A stretch of 10,994 nucleotides of DNA. It comes from a virus. Lineage: Duplodnaviria; Heunggongvirae; Uroviricota; Caudoviricetes. The position numbers were made by a program, and so were the translations under genes. The notes beneath the pieces were generated by a model. The model made no database searches and had not been told where the DNA came from. It worked only from the letters and a program-made list of their open reading frames with translations. Location: IMG/VR virus record IMGVR_UViG_2617270998_000005. One strand, 5' to 3'. Below are positions 499-10,994 of the stretch, piece after piece (positions within the stretch are counted from its first letter, which is position 1; each line of letters opens with the position of its first letter).

Positions 499-921
499 TC
501 ACCGTGGTAATGTTCGAATATTTCCCTTATAAAATGCCAAAATCCGCTGCATAACTTCGCTCTTCCGGCACTCGCGACAGATTATGTTCATACGCCTGTC
601 GTAGCGACGTATTTCTCCGTCAGGTAATGACCAGATAAGGTCCGGATCAACCACAGCAGGTTTCTTCACCTTTGCCCTCGAGAGTTTTTTGCGGGCGTTT
701 TGCCAGTCCTTACGCGCCTGTTCAGAGGGGAATAACCCGTAGCCGGAGTTGTATACATCGCCACTGGCAACCAGCTCTCTGGCAAGAACGCTCATCAGAT
801 ATCTTGTCGCACCTGTTTTAGCTTCCAGTTGCCGTAGCGTCTCACGACCGCTCTGGCGCACGAGTTCCACCACCTGCCCTTTAATTTTTTCCCGCTCTTC
901 TTGTGTAAAAACTTTTGCCAC
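499..921 (-). CDS. hypothetical phage protein (140 aa), immediately downstream of the O-like replication gene; function unknown
   Basis: Six-frame ORF. GTG start at 919-921 preceded by a strong Shine-Dalgarno (AAGGGGGA, about 5 nt spacing). No upstream in-frame ATG. Lies 40 bp after the O-like gene stop on the same strand. No family recognised. Confidence 0.55.
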   Translation of the reverse strand: MAKVFTQEEREKIKGQVVELVRQSGRETLRQLEAKTGATRYLMSVLARELVASGDVYNSGYGLFPSEQARKDWQNARKKLSRAKVKKPAVVDPDLIWSLPDGEIRRYDRRMNIICRECRKSEVMQRILAFYKGNIRTLPR

Positions 922-961: not shown

Positions 962-1927
962 TTATCCCCTGAAACCAGGCGGAATTTCTGTATCCGGTTC
1001 AGAAATATGATTCACACAACGCTGTACAGACGAACGCCCCAGACGGATGACCAGTTCATCCCATTTTTCACGAAGTTTTGACGGGCTCATGATGTTTTTT
1101 ACCCAGAATGGATCTCGCTGTACCCGACCAAACATTTCGCAAATTTGTCTGTGGCTTCTGCCATCCAGCATCCGCATTGTGCGCACGTCATTGGCCCAGG
1201 CAGTCCAGTTAGGCTCTTTTGGTCGCATGATCTCGCCATCATCACTGGCTGCCTGTTCGTAGAGACCCACGATCCGCCCCCAGATCCACTGCGCACACGC
1301 CAAATCCTCCCTGCTACCCCACTGGCGTTTTTTCGCACTAAACACAACCGCGTCGGAGTTCCGGGTTAAAAAATCCTGTTCAGTCGTCTGCGGGTCCGGT
1401 TGCGAAGCTTCCGGACGAAAAGTGTTTTTATTCTCTGTAGTAATCTCTGTTGTATTCTCTGTAAGATCATCAGGCCATTTTGACCCGATGACATTGGGTC
1501 GTTTTGAACCAATGGAGCGTTTCATTTTGACCTCTTCCATCGTGTCATTTTGACCTGATGGAGCGGCGCATTTTGAACCGATGGATTCGCTCAATTTGCC
1601 ACCATCTAAAAGCTCGCTCCCATAGTTGATCGTGTAGAAATTGGTCATATCGCGCTTTGATTTATTGAGCTTTTCACAACGCAAAAGCCCCAGCGTTTTC
1701 AGACTTGCAAACGCGCGCTTTAACGTTGACTCTGACCAGAATGGGAACTGTTCCAGCCATTGTTCCGTTGTGTTGTAAATCCAGCGAACACCATCACATT
1801 CCATGCCGGAATTGGTATCTCTCAACCAGTAATGCAACTGCTGCAACACAATGGCTTCATTTAAGCCAATCTTCATCGCAAGCTGTGTGTTTATAACCAG
1901 TGGGCGTTCAGCAAAAAGAAGGCTCAT
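962..1927 (-). CDS. phage replication initiator, lambda O-like (321 aa from the internal ATG; the ORF track extends to a TTG at 1981)
   Basis: N-terminal region resembles a winged-helix replisome-organizer domain (by eye). The gene body contains the iteron array, as in lambda O/ori. The protein carries a matching SIGSK repeat. Position is downstream of the cro-like gene. ATG at 1925-1927 has a GGATGG-like SD; the TTG at 1981 would overlap the upstream gene by 74 nt. Start choice is uncertain. Confidence 0.7.
   Translation of the reverse strand: MSLLFAERPLVINTQLAMKIGLNEAIVLQQLHYWLRDTNSGMECDGVRWIYNTTEQWLEQFPFWSESTLKRAFASLKTLGLLRCEKLNKSKRDMTNFYTINYGSELLDGGKLSESIGSKCAAPSGQNDTMEEVKMKRSIGSKRPNVIGSKWPDDLTENTTEITTENKNTFRPEASQPDPQTTEQDFLTRNSDAVVFSAKKRQWGSREDLACAQWIWGRIVGLYEQAASDDGEIMRPKEPNWTAWANDVRTMRMLDGRSHRQICEMFGRVQRDPFWVKNIMSPSKLREKWDELVIRLGRSSVQRCVNHISEPDTEIPPGFRG
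1476..1590. repeat. origin-of-replication iterons: five direct repeats of about 23-bp period, core CATTTTGA(A/C)C followed by GATGG-like half
   Basis: Copies at 1476-1485 (cattttgacc), 1500-1510 (cgttttgaacc), 1523-1532 (cattttgacc), 1546-1555 (cattttgacc), 1569-1579 (cattttgaacc). A degenerate sixth may lie at 1591-1600. All are inside the O-like gene. Confidence 0.75.
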
Positions 1928-2429
1928 AATTCCATCCAGCTTTTTGTTGGTATTGCTGTCGATACGCAAGTTTGAAAGCAATTGCTTTTTCTATAAGTTC
2001 GTCAGTTTCACGATCCACTACGGCAGGATCAGCAAAAAGCAGTCCGGACTCCACCACATCGCCATATTCTTTGTTTAACCCGGCGATCATGTACGTGATG
2101 CTTTTTCCGTCACTAATTTCACGATACAACCTGAAATCATTAATCCGGATAGCCTCCATAATTGCAGGCACTAGCGCCGTGAACTTTTCACGCTTATCCC
2201 TGGTGTCGATAGCCTTCCAGCGTTCGAATATCTTCACTCGATTAACGCCAAGCGCTCGCTGATCAACCGCGCCACCTTCATCTGTGACACGCTGAACATC
2301 GATGTTCGGGCGCTCTTTCAAAGCCCAGAATGCTTCAGTGATTAATATCGTCGCCTGCTCCTGTGTCATTCCTGGTCGACATATCCAGGCATCCAGAGCC
2401 TCACGAGCCTGTTCAGGAGTGATTTTCAT
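1908..2429 (-). CDS. hypothetical phage protein (173 aa) between the cro-like gene and the replication initiator; possibly YdaT-like
   Basis: ATG at 2427-2429. Overlaps the dicC stop by 17 nt and the O-like gene start region. The YdaT-like suggestion rests on position (as in Rac ydaS-ydaT) and a weak remembered motif (REK...LVPAI), not on an alignment. Confidence 0.55.
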   Translation of the reverse strand: MKITPEQAREALDAWICRPGMTQEQATILITEAFWALKERPNIDVQRVTDEGGAVDQRALGVNRVKIFERWKAIDTRDKREKFTALVPAIMEAIRINDFRLYREISDGKSITYMIAGLNKEYGDVVESGLLFADPAVVDRETDELIEKAIAFKLAYRQQYQQKAGWNYEPSFC

Positions 2430-2640: not shown

Positions 2641-2717
2641 CGCACCTCCAATATTGAGTTTTCTCAATGCTAATCACTCAAGGAATCTCAAGTCAAGGGT
2701 TATTAAGATATCTAAAT
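2641..2717. promoter_or_regulatory. dicC-dicA divergent control region with operator-like palindromes
   Basis: Perfect palindrome TTGAGttttCTCAA at 2654-2667. Three TCAAG(G) repeats at 2678, 2688, 2693. Palindrome AGATATCT at 2706-2713, just before the dicA ATG. Confidence 0.5.
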
Positions 2718-4309: not shown

Positions 4310-4365
4310 TTTCTGGTGACGTTTGGCGGTATCAGTTTTACTCCGTGACTGCTCTGCCGCCGTTT
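4310..4365 (+). ncRNA. dicF: DicF small regulatory RNA (about 53 nt; antisense regulator of ftsZ and other mRNAs)
   Basis: Sequence TTTCTGGTGACGTTTGGCGGTATCAGTTTTACTCCGTGACTGCTCTGCCGCC followed by GTTTTT matches DicF as recalled. It sits in the expected place between the ydfABC region and dicB. Confidence 0.8.
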
Positions 4366-5006: not shown

Positions 5007-7478
5007 ATGAGTAAAGTCTTTATTTGCGCCGCTATTCCTGACGAACTGGCAACAAGGGAAGAAGGCGCTGTGGCTGTAGCCACAGCCATTGAAGCTGGCG
5101 ACGAACGCCGTGCTCGAGCAAAATTTCACTGGCAATTCCTGGAACATTATCCGGCTGCTCAGGACTGCGCTTATAAATTTATTGTCTGCGAGGATAAACC
5201 TGGCATACCCCGCCCTGCCCTCGATTCATGGGATGCTGAATATATGCAGGAAAACCGCTGGGATGAGGAGTCTGCTTCTTTTGTCCCGGTTGAGACTGAA
5301 TCCGATCCGATGAACGTCACTTTTGACAAGCTGGCCCCTGAAGTACAGAACGCTGTCATGGTTAAGTTCGACACATGTGAAAACATCACCGTTGATATGG
5401 TTATTAGCGCACAGGAATTGTTGCAGGAAGACATGGCAACATTCGACGGACATATCGTTGAAGCGTTGATGAAAATGCCAGAAGTTAACGCCATGTATCC
5501 GGAGCTTAAGTTGCACGCCATTGGGTGGGTTAAGCATAAATGTATTCCTGGTGCCAAATGGCCCGAAATTCAGGCAGAGATGCGCATCTGGAAAAAACGT
5601 CGCGAAGGTGAACGCAAGGAAACCGGAAAATACACGTCTGTTGTTGATCTCGCCCGCGCCAGAGTCAACCGGCAGAACACTGAAAACTCAACAGGAAAAA
5701 TCCACCCTGTCACTGCCGCCATTCGTCGCGAATACAAGCAGACATGGAAAACACTGGATGATGAACTGGCCTACGCTCTGTGGCCTGGTGACATTGATGC
5801 CGGAAACATTGACGGCAGCATCCATCGCTGGGCAAAAAATGAAGTTATCGACAACGACCGCGAAGACTGGAAGCGTATCTCGGCATCAATGCGCAAACAG
5901 CCTGATGCCCTTCGCTACGACCGCCAGACTATTTTTGGCCTTGTCCGTGAACGTCCGATCGACATTCACAAAGACCCTGTGGCACTGAACAAATACATTA
6001 CTGAATACCTGACTACAAAGGGCGTGTTTGAGAATGAAGAAACAGACCTGGGCACTGTTGATGTTCTCCAGTCATCAGAAACACAAACTGATGCAGTGGA
6101 AACTGAGGTATCTGATATCCCAAAAAATGAAACCGCGCCGGAAGCTGAACCATCTGTAGAGCGTGAGGGGCCGTTCTATTTCCTCTTCGCAGATAAGGAC
6201 GGAGAAAAATACGGTCGCGCAAACAAACTTTCTGGTCTGGATAAGGCACTGGCTGCTGGCGCCACTGAAATCACAAAAGAAGAATATTTTGCCCGAAAAA
6301 ATGGCACATACACGGGCTTACCGCAAAATGTAGATACCGCTGAAGATTCAGAACAACCAGAGCCGATAAAAGTTACCGCTGACGAAGTAAACAAAATTAT
6401 GCAGGCAGCCAATATCATCCAGCCTGACGCCGATAAGTTGCTTGCTGCATCACGTGGTGAATTTGTTGAAGGGATTAGTGACCCGAATGATCCGAAATGG
6501 GTTAAGGGGATCCAGACCCGCGATTCTGTGAACCAGAACCAGCATGAATCGGAACGGAACTACCAAAAAGCGGAACAAAACAGCCCAAATGCGTTACAAA
6601 ACGAGCCAGAAACGAAACAGCCTGAATCAGTGGCGCAACAGAAAGTGGAAAAAGTCTGCACCGCCTGCGGTCAGACCAGCGGCGGCAACTGCCCTGATTG
6701 TGGCGCGGTAATGGGCGACGCAACATACCAGGAAACATTCGATGAAGAGTATCAGGTTGAAGTTCAGGAAGATGATCCGGAGAAAATGGAAGGCGCTGAA
6801 CATCCACACAAGGAGAACACTGGCGGCAATCAGCATCACGATAGCGATAATGAAACTGGCGAGACGGCAGATCACTCAATTAAGGTGAACGGTCATCACG
6901 AAATCACATCCACCAGCAGGACGTGTGACCATCTAATGATCGACCTTGAAACCATGGGAAAAAATCCTGATGCCCCGATCATCTCAATAGGTGCAATATT
7001 TTTCGATCCGCAAACCGGAGATATGGGACCGGAATTTAGTAAGACTATCGATCTGGAAACTGCTGGCGGAGTCATTGATCGGGACACCATTAAATGGTGG
7101 CTTAAGCAATCACGCGAAGCGCAATCTGCCATTATGACCGATGAAATCCCGTTAGATGATGCACTGTTACAATTGCGGGAATTTATCGACGAAAACTCCG
7201 GTGAATTTTTTGTTCAGGTCTGGGGAAATGGAGCCAACTTCGACAACACGATTTTGCGCCGTTCATACGAACGGCAGGGGATCCCCTGCCCGTGGCGTTA
7301 CTACAACGATCGCGATGTACGCACAATCGTTGAGCTGGGGAAAGCCATAGACTTCGATGCCAGAACGGCTATTCAATTCGAAGGTGAGCGCCATAATGCA
7401 CTTGATGACGCCCGTTACCAGGCAAAATACGTTTCAGTTATCTGGCAAAAACTGATCCCGAGTCAGGCTGATTCTTAA
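5007..7478 (+). CDS. ydfE: YdfE-like large prophage protein (823 aa): N-terminal YdfE-homologous domain, acidic central region with a CxxC...CxxC zinc ribbon, C-terminal DEDDh-type 3'-5' exonuclease domain
   Basis: A GAGG SD precedes the ATG. The N-terminus MSKVFICAAIPDELATREEGAVAVATAIEAG... matches K-12 YdfE as I recall it. The C-terminus carries exonuclease motifs DLETMG (Exo I), WGNGANFDNTIL (Exo II) and HNALDDARYQAKY (Exo III). A CTACGQTSGGNCPDCG ribbon is encoded at about 6658-6705. Confidence 0.85.
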   Translation: MSKVFICAAIPDELATREEGAVAVATAIEAGDERRARAKFHWQFLEHYPAAQDCAYKFIVCEDKPGIPRPALDSWDAEYMQENRWDEESASFVPVETESDPMNVTFDKLAPEVQNAVMVKFDTCENITVDMVISAQELLQEDMATFDGHIVEALMKMPEVNAMYPELKLHAIGWVKHKCIPGAKWPEIQAEMRIWKKRREGERKETGKYTSVVDLARARVNRQNTENSTGKIHPVTAAIRREYKQTWKTLDDELAYALWPGDIDAGNIDGSIHRWAKNEVIDNDREDWKRISASMRKQPDALRYDRQTIFGLVRERPIDIHKDPVALNKYITEYLTTKGVFENEETDLGTVDVLQSSETQTDAVETEVSDIPKNETAPEAEPSVEREGPFYFLFADKDGEKYGRANKLSGLDKALAAGATEITKEEYFARKNGTYTGLPQNVDTAEDSEQPEPIKVTADEVNKIMQAANIIQPDADKLLAASRGEFVEGISDPNDPKWVKGIQTRDSVNQNQHESERNYQKAEQNSPNALQNEPETKQPESVAQQKVEKVCTACGQTSGGNCPDCGAVMGDATYQETFDEEYQVEVQEDDPEKMEGAEHPHKENTGGNQHHDSDNETGETADHSIKVNGHHEITSTSRTCDHLMIDLETMGKNPDAPIISIGAIFFDPQTGDMGPEFSKTIDLETAGGVIDRDTIKWWLKQSREAQSAIMTDEIPLDDALLQLREFIDENSGEFFVQVWGNGANFDNTILRRSYERQGIPCPWRYYNDRDVRTIVELGKAIDFDARTAIQFEGERHNALDDARYQAKYVSVIWQKLIPSQADS

Positions 7479-9304: not shown

Positions 9305-9740
9305 TTATTCAGAAAAAGTGAGTAAGACTTTGCAGCAATGTTTTTGATCCTGTTCAAATAAACTAATGGCATCAGCAACATGCTGGAAATCAAACGTATG
9401 GGTAATTAATTTTTCTGGTTTAATTAACCCTTTACTTAACCAGTCGATAACGATCGGGAATTTATTTGCATTTAAGCGTGAAGAGAAAATAGAGAGTTCT
9501 TTTCCGGTAATTCCTTGCTGAATCACTTCAGACGGTTCACTGGAGAACCCCATCAATACAATACGTGCCGCTGGAGAAGCCAGCGTTACGGCCTCTTTCA
9601 GGATAGAAGGATGACAAGCCGCATCGATAATTAATGTCGGCTTGATGCCTTTTTCAGTGAAAATCTCGCCAAGCGGTGTCTGGCTGTTATTAATCGCCCA
9701 GTCAGCCCCGCTCTCTTTGAGCCTGTTCAGGATTCTGTGT
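9305..9740 (-). pseudogene. rspB: 3' fragment of an rspB-like zinc-dependent alcohol dehydrogenase gene, 5' part removed by IS insertion
   Basis: Translation ...KESGADWAINNSQTPLGEIFTEKGIKPTLIIDAACHPSILKEAVTLASPAARIVLMGF...KVLLTFSE is a C-terminal MDR/Zn-ADH cofactor domain, with no N-terminal catalytic domain. The upstream frame runs into IS sequence. The upper boundary near 9740 is approximate. rspB is the gene I recall flanking this prophage end in K-12. Confidence 0.7.
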
Positions 9741-10994
9741 AAATACCTTTTCTCAGAAGTGGCCGTCCAGGCGGTCACCGAACTCGATAATAAAGCGGCT
9801 CATTGCCATACGCCAGTCCCGCAGTGGCATCGTCCATTTCTGTGAAGCCGCCTGGATTGCCAGCCACACCACTTTTTTCACCGAGTCGTCTGTCGGGAAC
9901 ACTTTACGCTTTTTGATCGCATGGCGGATCACGCTGTTTAGCGACTCGATGGCATTCGTCGTATAGATCACTTTGCGGATGTCCGTTGGATAAGCGAAGA
10001 ACGTGGCAAGATTCGGCCAGTTAGCCTGCCAGCTTCGGCTTATCTGAGGATAGCGACAGTCCCAGGCCGCAGCGAACGCTTCCAGTGCCTGCTGGCCTGC
10101 CTCTTCCGTGGGAGCCTGATAAATCGCTTTCAGGTCGCGAGTGACGGCTTTGTAGTCCTTCCATGACACGAAGCGCAGGCTGTTGCGCACCATATGCACG
10201 ATGCATAACTGGATGCGGGCCTTCGGATATACTGTGTTGATGGTATCCGGGAAGCCTTTCAGGCCATCCACACAGGCGATGAGGATATCGTTCAGACCGC
10301 GGTTTTTCAGTTCAGTCAGCACATTGAGCCAGAACTTCGCCCCTTCATTTTCGGCCAGCCACATACCCAGCAGTTCTTTCTGACCTTCGATATTGATGCC
10401 CAGTGCCAGGAACACCGATTTGTTGATGACGCGACTGTCCTGCCGAACTTTCAGGACGATACAGTCAAGATAAACAATGGGGTAAACAGCATCCAGTGGT
10501 CGGTTTTGCCATTCTACAACCTGCTCCATCACGGCATCGGTAACCTTTGATATCAGTGCCGGTGAAACATCTGCGTCATACAGTTCTTTGAACGCAGCAG
10601 CTATCTCACGGGTGGTCATCCCTTTGGCATACAACGAGAGGATCTGGTTATCCATCCCGGTAATACGGGTCTGATTTTTCTTTACCAGTTGTGGTTCGAA
10701 GGTACCGTCACGATCGCGCGGAGTACGCAGTTCCAGTGGACCGTCGCCTGTGATAACGGTCTTTGTGGAAAAACCGTTGCGGGAGTTAGCTCCTGGTCTG
10801 GACTGATTTTTCTCATACCCAAGATGGTGTGTCATCTCTGCATTGAGAGCGGCTTCAACGCTGAGCTTTTTCAGCAGCCGATCAAACTGACTGAGGTCTT
10901 CAGGGGTTTTGAGGTTTTTGGCCAGTTCGTTAGCCAGAGCCTGTAACTGTTTTTCGTCCATAAATTAACCTTCATTTGATGCTGGATTGAACAT
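9700..10994 (-). mobile_element. IS256-family insertion sequence (partial; left end beyond window, right end approximate) inserted in rspB
   Basis: Transposase gene plus the abrupt end of rspB homology a few tens of bp past the transposase stop. Inverted repeats could not be defined because only one end is in the window. Confidence 0.7.
9753..10961 (-). CDS. tnpA: IS256-family (mutator-type) transposase, 402 aa
   Basis: Full-length ORF with a GAAGG SD before the ATG at 10959-10961. The sequence has typical IS256-family features (MDEKQLQALANELAK... N-terminus; ...YTTNAIESLNSVIRHAIKKRKVFPTDD... core). Exact IS name not assigned. Confidence 0.88.
   Translation of the reverse strand: MDEKQLQALANELAKNLKTPEDLSQFDRLLKKLSVEAALNAEMTHHLGYEKNQSRPGANSRNGFSTKTVITGDGPLELRTPRDRDGTFEPQLVKKNQTRITGMDNQILSLYAKGMTTREIAAAFKELYDADVSPALISKVTDAVMEQVVEWQNRPLDAVYPIVYLDCIVLKVRQDSRVINKSVFLALGINIEGQKELLGMWLAENEGAKFWLNVLTELKNRGLNDILIACVDGLKGFPDTINTVYPKARIQLCIVHMVRNSLRFVSWKDYKAVTRDLKAIYQAPTEEAGQQALEAFAAAWDCRYPQISRSWQANWPNLATFFAYPTDIRKVIYTTNAIESLNSVIRHAIKKRKVFPTDDSVKKVVWLAIQAASQKWTMPLRDWRMAMSRFIIEFGDRLDGHF

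Follow-up and report, generated by a model that had tools for sequence, protein, structure and literature searches.

The DNA analysed here is a 10,994-nucleotide stretch from a Caudoviricetes virus (IMG/VR record IMGVR_UViG_2617270998_000005), referred to below as the window. We propose, with a probability of roughly 0.8, that positions 1422 to 1606 are the vegetative replication origin of a lambdoid prophage of the Qin-site, mEp460/HannyBb type, and that this origin lies within the linker-coding part of its own initiator gene. The gene (962–1927, minus strand) is an open reading frame whose 321-amino-acid (aa) translation matches PHROG 391, 'replication initiation O-like' (E 1.6e-91). An iteron origin inside the initiator gene is a known kind and is expected in an O-like gene. 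The variant features in this case are an N-terminal domain that is not of the lambda type, an 'O-only' replication module, a conserved block of 12-mers, and a mimic of the DnaT tail. An earlier sequence-only reading of this DNA had proposed the lambda ori-in-O arrangement, which is supported by the position in the linker, the AT-rich flank, the anatomy of the iterons, the lambda-O-like C-terminal domain, and the phased repeats in homologues.

The iteron array spans 1468–1606 and has the coding-strand consensus CATCrGGTCAAAATGnCCyGATG, which is kept in relatives. It starts with R1 (1468–1490; coding strand CATCGGGTCAAAATGGCCTGATG) and continues with the coding-strand 23-mers R2 (1492–1514), R3 (1515–1537), R4 (1538–1560), and R5 (1561–1583). 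The last unit, R6 (1584–1606), is degenerate both here and in the isolated phage HannyBb, whereas relatives carry a good copy of it. Spacings over R1 to R6 are 24, 23, 23, 23, and 23 bp. The core on the coding (minus) strand is GGTCAAAATG. Its plus-strand form CATTTTGAMC, with at most one mismatch, was found at 1476, 1500, 1523, 1546, and 1569 (spacings of 24, 23, 23, and 23 bp), with a single further match in the window, at 7130, and repeat finding on the window gave the same 23-bp families. The sequence-only reading had reported five near-identical repeats about 23 bp apart at 1476–1600. These repeats are real and correctly located, although the array is slightly wider than was stated, the five good copies belong to a family of six if the degenerate R6 is included, and the GATGG half attributed to all five is present in four of them and missing from R3.

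To judge the array against chance, we used 1000 first-order Markov resamples of the window as a control. The longest chain of core matches spaced 22–24 bp apart contains five members in the window, compared with a maximum of two, seen three times, in the resamples. The phased array is far beyond chance. Dyad symmetry is evident in R1, R2, and R4, where 8 of 11 arm positions are complementary, so that these units are near-palindromes. Because 23 is not a multiple of three, one DNA core is read in three frames: R5 and R2 yield the peptide SIGSK and R1 yields VIGSK, whereas R4 and R3 yield PSGQN and EEVKM in the other two frames. This excludes a protein-level origin of the repeat, even though the short SIGSK peptide repeat that had been noticed to match the DNA repeats does exist, in the copies just named. 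The iterons encode aa 107–153 of the protein and the adjacent 12-mers aa 155–168.

Relatives for the analysis of covariation were found by tblastn of phage records. Phased repeats of 22–24 bp stand at the same place in relatives ranging from E. coli to Staphylococcus phages. The sequence-only reading had taken homologous O-like genes lacking the repeats as evidence that would speak against an origin. On inspection, homologues at 50–80% N-domain identity, from Klebsiella, Citrobacter, Erwinia, and Staphylococcus phages, retain phased repeats at this place. Relatives from Citrobacter, E. coli, and Klebsiella carry six repeats in register. In Klebsiella phage Kp4882-3 this N-domain, together with the iterons and 12-mers, is joined to a different C-domain of the Phg_2220_C type, and the N-domain and the iterons are therefore inherited as one unit. 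At 50–63% N-domain identity, Erwinia phage PEp14 has five GAAGAGGGCAAATTGCCCT repeats spaced 23–48 bp apart, mostly 23–24 bp, the GGGGCAAAATGCCCC repeats of Klebsiella phage SopranoGao recur every 23 bp, and the GGACAAAATGGCCCGAC repeats of Staphylococcus phage 96 every 22–23 bp, all directly after the N-domain. The arms of the repeats in distant relatives differ in sequence, and they do so symmetrically around CAAAATG (GGGCAAATTGCCC, CTACCCAAAATGGGTAG, GTGTTCAAAATGAACAG, GTATCAAAATGATAC, and GGACAAAATGGCC). Such symmetric co-variation of both arms is to be expected if a dimeric winged-helix protein binds them. Among 85 distinct metagenomic viral loci carrying the same N-domain family, the sequence upstream of the 12-mers matched itself best at a shift of 23 bp in 72 and of 22–25 bp in the others.

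Conservation is also visible at synonymous sites. In a codon alignment of five relatives (68–100% protein identity), synonymous codon identity was 0.89–0.98 across aa 106–179, compared with 0.43–0.73 in the N- and C-domains. This linker-coding region, in which synonymous sites are nearly frozen, corresponds to 1391–1612 on the minus strand and encloses the whole array together with the 12-mers.

On the downstream side of R1 lies an AT-rich element of three 12-bp repeats (1422–1464; coding strand TTACAGAGAATAC AACAGAGATTAC TACAGAGAATAA) with the consensus ACAGAGAnTAC and the encoded peptide TENTTEITTEN. The GC content of 0.30 at 1420–1459 makes this the most AT-rich 40 bp of the gene and the lowest value between 900 and 2000. 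A BLAST alignment sets TENTTEITTEN opposite the peptide encoded by the AT-rich tract of lambda. Judging from its position, the element is presumed to be the region of unwinding or helicase entry. An exact-pattern scan for the tandem ACAGAGAnTAC 12-mer returned at least 120 viral loci. The N-domain family of the present initiator stands upstream of the tandem in 75 of them, and nearly all of the remaining ones lie in open reading frames of 250–390 aa that resemble other winged-helix initiators and have 23-bp repeats of their own. When the peptide TEITTEIT was sought in any codons, 120 loci were returned and ACA-GAG-ATT was used in 116; the nucleotides of the 12-mer are therefore conserved, not the peptide alone. 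Stx, Bacillus, Staphylococcus, Acinetobacter, and Xanthomonas phages carry the segment in their initiator genes at 86–97% identity, among them an Stx1 phage whose initiator differs in N-domain and iterons and precedes DnaC-like and DnaB-like genes. More generally, genes for initiators with unrelated N-domains contain the 12-mer (peptide TExTTExT) in phages infecting E. coli, Klebsiella, Pseudomonas, Acinetobacter, Xanthomonas, Bacillus, and Staphylococcus. The 12-mers were also mapped at 1947–1994 in locus L089, at 1947–1970 in L091, and at about 1800–1850 in L311. Literature searches with the 12-mer or iteron sequences, the TEITTE peptide, or mEp460 returned nothing relevant, and no description of the 12-mer element was found in the searchable literature. 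Rfam gave no RNA family in the origin region.

The same combination was seen on a plasmid. In pBSG3 (NC_014104.1; locus L313, 741–845), an 8.4-kb Bacillus rolling-circle plasmid of the Rep_1 family, three 23-bp repeats with a CCTACAGGGAAA core are followed by three ACAGAGATTAC 12-mers. The block lies about 550 bp upstream of rep, outside annotated genes and without a winged-helix initiator domain in cis, and could be either a gene remnant or a free-standing origin-like cassette. Six more Bacillus plasmids of 8.4–8.9 kb contain the 12-mer segment at 90% identity over 40 bp; the arrangement was inspected in pBSG3 only.

The initiator consists of an N-terminal winged-helix-like domain, a disordered linker, a lambda-O-like C-domain, and a DnaT-like tail. 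Pfam and NCBIfam searches assigned it to no family, and PHROG labels of related families read 'DnaD-like helicase loader' and 'replication initiation protein'. The N-domain (aa 9–103; 1619–1903, minus strand) is presumed to be the iteron-binding winged helix; its AlphaFold2 model places helices and strands, at low confidence, at residues 14–78 and 98–100. Members of the N-domain family gave only sub-threshold winged-helix hits in Pfam, with DnaD_N below threshold in 3 of 22 members, and a profile search of the Protein Data Bank (PDB) sequences with the family returned nothing useful. The family is large, with 10,302 clusters at 50% identity from phages of Gram-negative and Gram-positive hosts. 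The linker is predicted to be disordered, as the predicted local distance difference test score (pLDDT) falls below 50 for aa 85–177, with folded N- and C-domains on either side. The C-terminal domain (aa 183–296; 1040–1381, minus strand), helical in the AlphaFold2 model, shares homology with the P-binding domain at the C-terminus of lambda O: in BLASTP, residues 147–294 align with lambda O residues 135–270 at 34% identity over 148 aa (E 1e-26). By homology, then, the initiator is a chimera of a non-lambda N-domain and a lambda-O C-domain. The description of the gene as O-like in the sequence-only reading accordingly holds for the C-terminal half of the protein and fails for the N-domain, where a relation to lambda O was not detectable.

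The small winged-helix protein encoded by the neighbouring DUF977/PerC gene was considered as an alternative iteron binder and rejected as less parsimonious; relatives without that gene keep the iterons. Many large proteins of 400–880 aa (P0126, P0129, P0149, and others) contain two tandem copies of the N-domain, with no Pfam hit of note. In public records the initiator is mostly labelled 'hypothetical protein' in RefSeq and 'Primosomal protein I' in RAST-style annotation, the latter evidently because of its DnaT-like tail. Some annotations fuse the upstream YdaT/cII-like gene with the initiator into a 448-aa protein (P0001, P0002, and P0004).

The phage has no P, DnaC-like, or DnaB-like gene, and the gene after the initiator is DUF977/Ren-like. 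No further replication gene, and no loader or helicase, is annotated in the complete HannyBb genome. In relatives, likewise, no loader or helicase was found next to the initiator, the place being taken by PerC-like, DUF977, or methylase genes. The module is thus of the O-only kind, in which the replication genes are limited to one O homologue. Zheng, Casjens et al. (Genome Res 2025, PMC12315714) recognised such modules in phage LLS and in 34 of 314 genomes of lambdoid phages.

The C-terminal tail of the initiator (aa 301–321; 965–1027, minus strand; VQRCVNHISEPDTEIPPGFRG) is nearly identical to the last 21 residues of E. coli DnaT. In a phmmer search against PDB chains of DnaT, 17 of the 21 residues were identical to DnaT residues 159–179 (E 1.4e-4). 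The NCBIfam DnaT model scored 16.9 bits against a cut-off of 201, with the match limited to residues 300–321. The rest of DnaT, namely its N-domain and the three-helix bundle that binds single-stranded DNA, is absent from the initiator, and the PDB matches cover the last 21 residues only. Relatives with a different C-domain retain the (I/V)PxGFR(G/S) motif of the tail, as do several PHROG families. In DnaT this C-terminal segment is a highly flexible tail of 20 residues (PMC5778457), and how the PriA-PriB-DnaT preprimosome recruits DnaB-DnaC was still unknown according to a 2026 paper (PMC13377028). Our searches of the literature found nothing on a described function of the DnaT tail or on phage mimics of it.

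We compared the genes following tail-bearing and tail-less initiators among the viral loci that carry the 12-mer tandem. None of 14 distinct tail-bearing initiators had a helicase or loader among the first two downstream open reading frames. In contrast, 32 of 54 tail-less initiators, these being the ones with a qualifying downstream open reading frame of at least 110 aa, were directly followed by one: 15 DnaC-like (IstB_IS21), 14 DnaB_C, and 3 lambda_P. The difference between 0 of 14 and 32 of 54 gives p = 3.5e-5 by Fisher's exact test, a value not corrected for relatedness. From these comparisons we hypothesise that the tail takes the place of a phage loader and docks onto a host partner of DnaT. 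In its wider form, which we regard as tentative and rather less probable than its opposite, O-only phages may need no loader because the initiator tail mimics the flexible tail of host DnaT. It would act as a portable docking peptide that joins the origin-bound initiator to the host step served by DnaT, whether recruitment of DnaB-DnaC or engagement of PriA/PriB, with loading at the conserved ACAGAGAyTAC tandem beside the iterons. If true, this would explain the replication of O-only phages and would pinpoint the part of DnaT that recruits the helicase.

Tail-less initiators show other recurrent C-terminal endings, such as DKFGKSSNKLTF (31 loci) or acidic stretches with a final W (loci L095–L310), which may be alternative docking peptides. 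In L311, the one locus of its kind that was inspected, a tail-less initiator ending in DEFGKSSDNLTF is followed by DnaC-like and DnaB-like genes.

Taken together, a lambda-like course of initiation can be envisaged. Transcription from a pR-like promoter would yield the 321-aa initiator, whose N-terminal winged-helix dimers would bind the five or six dyad-symmetric 23-bp iterons to form a lambda-like 'O-some'. The O-some would stress the adjacent AT-rich block of three ACAGAGAnTAC 12-mers, which would then open. Because the phage has no P, DnaC-like, or DnaB-like protein, recruitment of the host helicase must go through the initiator itself, with its lambda-O-like C-domain and DnaT-like tail as the most plausible route. 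We infer each of these steps, from iteron binding through unwinding at the 12-mers to helicase recruitment by the tail, from the anatomy, conservation, and homologies described above.

The window belongs to a lambdoid prophage located at the rspB (Qin) site, and its early region, with the initiator gene and origin, is 98–99% identical to the isolated phages HannyBb, mEp460_ev081, and PhiR42_1. Genes are ordered as repressor, cro, cII-like gene, initiator gene, and DUF977/Ren-like gene, and relatives keep this order around the initiator. A cII-like gene of the YdaT family (1908–2429, minus strand; Pfam YdaT_toxin, PHROG 163 'CII-like') lies directly upstream of the initiator gene. Further upstream, a consensus scan found a candidate pR-like promoter (2667–2696, minus strand; TTGACT, 18-nucleotide spacer, TAGCAT), a pattern match only, whose transcripts would cross cro, the cII-like gene, the initiator gene, and the origin. 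The small winged-helix DUF977/Ren-like gene (499–921, minus strand; Pfam DUF977 E 2.8e-29, PHROG 142) adjoins the initiator gene on the other side. The window also contains a dicA/dicC-type immunity region and the DicF small RNA (4311–4362, plus strand; Rfam RF00039, 72.5 bits), as expected for the immunity and cell-division region of a Qin-type prophage.

Two different insertion sequences flank the prophage region. The end of IS2 occupies 1–322, where its terminal sequence stops (98% matches to IS2 copies), and interrupts the prophage 177 bp beyond the DUF977 gene; intact relatives align to the window only from 323 or 417 onward. At the other end, an IS256-family element (Transposase_mut) interrupts rspB, the neighbouring chromosomal gene, present as a zinc-dehydrogenase fragment; these features lie at 9305–9778 and 9753–10961 on the minus strand. 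The sequence-only reading was right that IS2 has inserted near the replication module, although the distance is one gene rather than two, with only DUF977 between. Its view that the module is structurally intact is fair for the gene plus the origin, since the initiator gene with its repeats differs from that of HannyBb by only 16 nucleotides and 3 aa, and the iteron and 12-mer region by only two positions, 1602 and 1498. Near-full copies of the module were present in 1516 of 5426 complete genomes; it is very common in E. coli prophages.

Several observations weigh against an origin worked by this initiator. Dyad symmetry is poor in R3, R5, and R6, with 5–6 of 11 arm positions complementary, and by analogy with the outer iterons of Stx phages (PMC7466680) these units may be bound weakly or not at all. 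For the N-domain there is no Pfam family, and similarity to the N-domain of lambda O was not detectable; an hhalign comparison of its family with lambda O residues 1–118 gave a probability of 0.1%, which sets it apart from the lambda O type (Pfam Phage_rep_O). Its fold is weakly supported, as the AlphaFold2 model was built from a shallow alignment and reached a pLDDT of 53 overall and about 65–74 in the N-domain. The best Foldseek matches, the winged-helix N-terminal domains of staphylococcal plasmid RepA proteins 4pql, 4pt7, and 5kbj (probability 0.98–1.0), have weak E-values (0.025–0.14; TM-score to target 0.42–0.57), and because the model is poor they are only suggestive. The synonymous-site test compared five sequences, two of them nearly identical, and mosaic recombination could inflate local identity. 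Finally, O-only replication was called not yet understood in 2025 (PMC12315714).

We also considered what else the repeats might be. They could be genuine initiator-binding sites that serve control (autoregulation, titration or 'handcuffing', or exclusion of related phages), while the start site lies elsewhere or replication depends mainly on recombination. Plasmid iterons double as copy-control sites, and the lack of an encoded helicase loader would suit such a function. O-only phages such as LLS are further reported to need host recombination for efficient growth (PMC12315714). Even so, we consider this reading unlikely. The array is joined to the AT-rich block exactly as in lambda ori, and many initiator families share the pairing of iterons with 12-mers, among them families that precede DnaC-like and DnaB-like genes, a pattern expected of an origin rather than of a phage-specific control site. 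Less probable still is the notion that the repeats arose by slippage in a repetitive, low-complexity linker (SIGSK...) and have no role as DNA. The region does encode a predicted disordered linker with a short peptide repeat. This notion is nonetheless hard to reconcile with a 23-bp period that is translated in three frames into three different peptides, with dyad symmetry in each unit, with synonymous sites that are frozen while amino acids vary, and with arms that co-vary symmetrically between phages.

An origin that is intact in sequence might also be dead, a relic in a decaying, IS-interrupted prophage that no longer fires here. The truncation by IS2 beyond the DUF977 gene, the IS256-family transposase in rspB, and the degenerate R6, which HannyBb shares and relatives do not, all point in this direction. 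On the other hand, the initiator is full length and within 3 aa of that of an isolated phage, the two substitutions in the iteron and 12-mer region are the only ones there, and this prophage has cro, the cII-like gene, and the promoter-like site. An origin and its initiator can fire even in defective, cryptic lambdoid prophages. A dead origin therefore seems to us improbable, and we favour a vegetative origin at 1422–1606.

These results provide a concrete origin map for a very common replication module of E. coli prophages. The chimeric initiator, the mimic of the DnaT tail, and the conserved tandem element make the problem of O-only replication testable, and in this 12-bp tandem element it is the nucleotides, beyond the peptide alone, that initiator genes of phages from Gram-negative and Gram-positive hosts alike conserve.

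Like the O-only class, the module has one O homologue and neither helicase nor loader. In mEp460_4F5, the closest relative of LLS for CI and Cro according to PMC12315714, a homologue shares the iterons, 12-mers, and tail seen here; the searched passages of that paper give no origin anatomy and contain 0 occurrences of DnaT, and LLS was compared by description. With E. coli DnaT (primosomal protein i) the initiator shares only the tail, with no full-length similarity. Another comparison is with RepA_N-type plasmid initiators (pSK41 and pTZ2162 RepA; 4pql, 4pt7, and 5kbj) and DnaD-like phage replisome organisers. The best fold match of the N-domain, a weak one, is to the winged-helix N-domains of the former, and no sequence match to the Pfam RepA_N or DnaD families exceeded the threshold. 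In RepA_N plasmids, too, iterons lie inside the rep gene.

In layout the origin corresponds to lambda ori. Lambda has four iterons and Stx phages have six, in each case with an AT-rich tract midway along gene O (PMC7466680). As in lambda and in the six-iteron Stx phages 933W and P27, four to six direct repeats 20–24 bp apart are followed on their downstream side by an AT-rich tract, and the whole lies mid-gene in linker-coding sequence between the DNA-binding and partner-binding domains. The lambda iterons, at O codons of about 117–145 and followed by the AT-rich tract, occupy the equivalent place. The units themselves, ATCCCTCAAAACGAGGGAT in lambda and the R1 sequence here, both have inverted arms around TCAAAA(C/T)G. 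Lambda pR transcribes through its origin, and the pR-like candidate here would do the same. At the place where lambda has P and then ren, the window has the DUF977/Ren-like gene. The module departs from lambda in that its initiator has an N-domain of another type than that of lambda O, a P gene is lacking altogether, the AT-rich tract is made of three conserved 12-mers, and the initiator ends in a DnaT-like tail.

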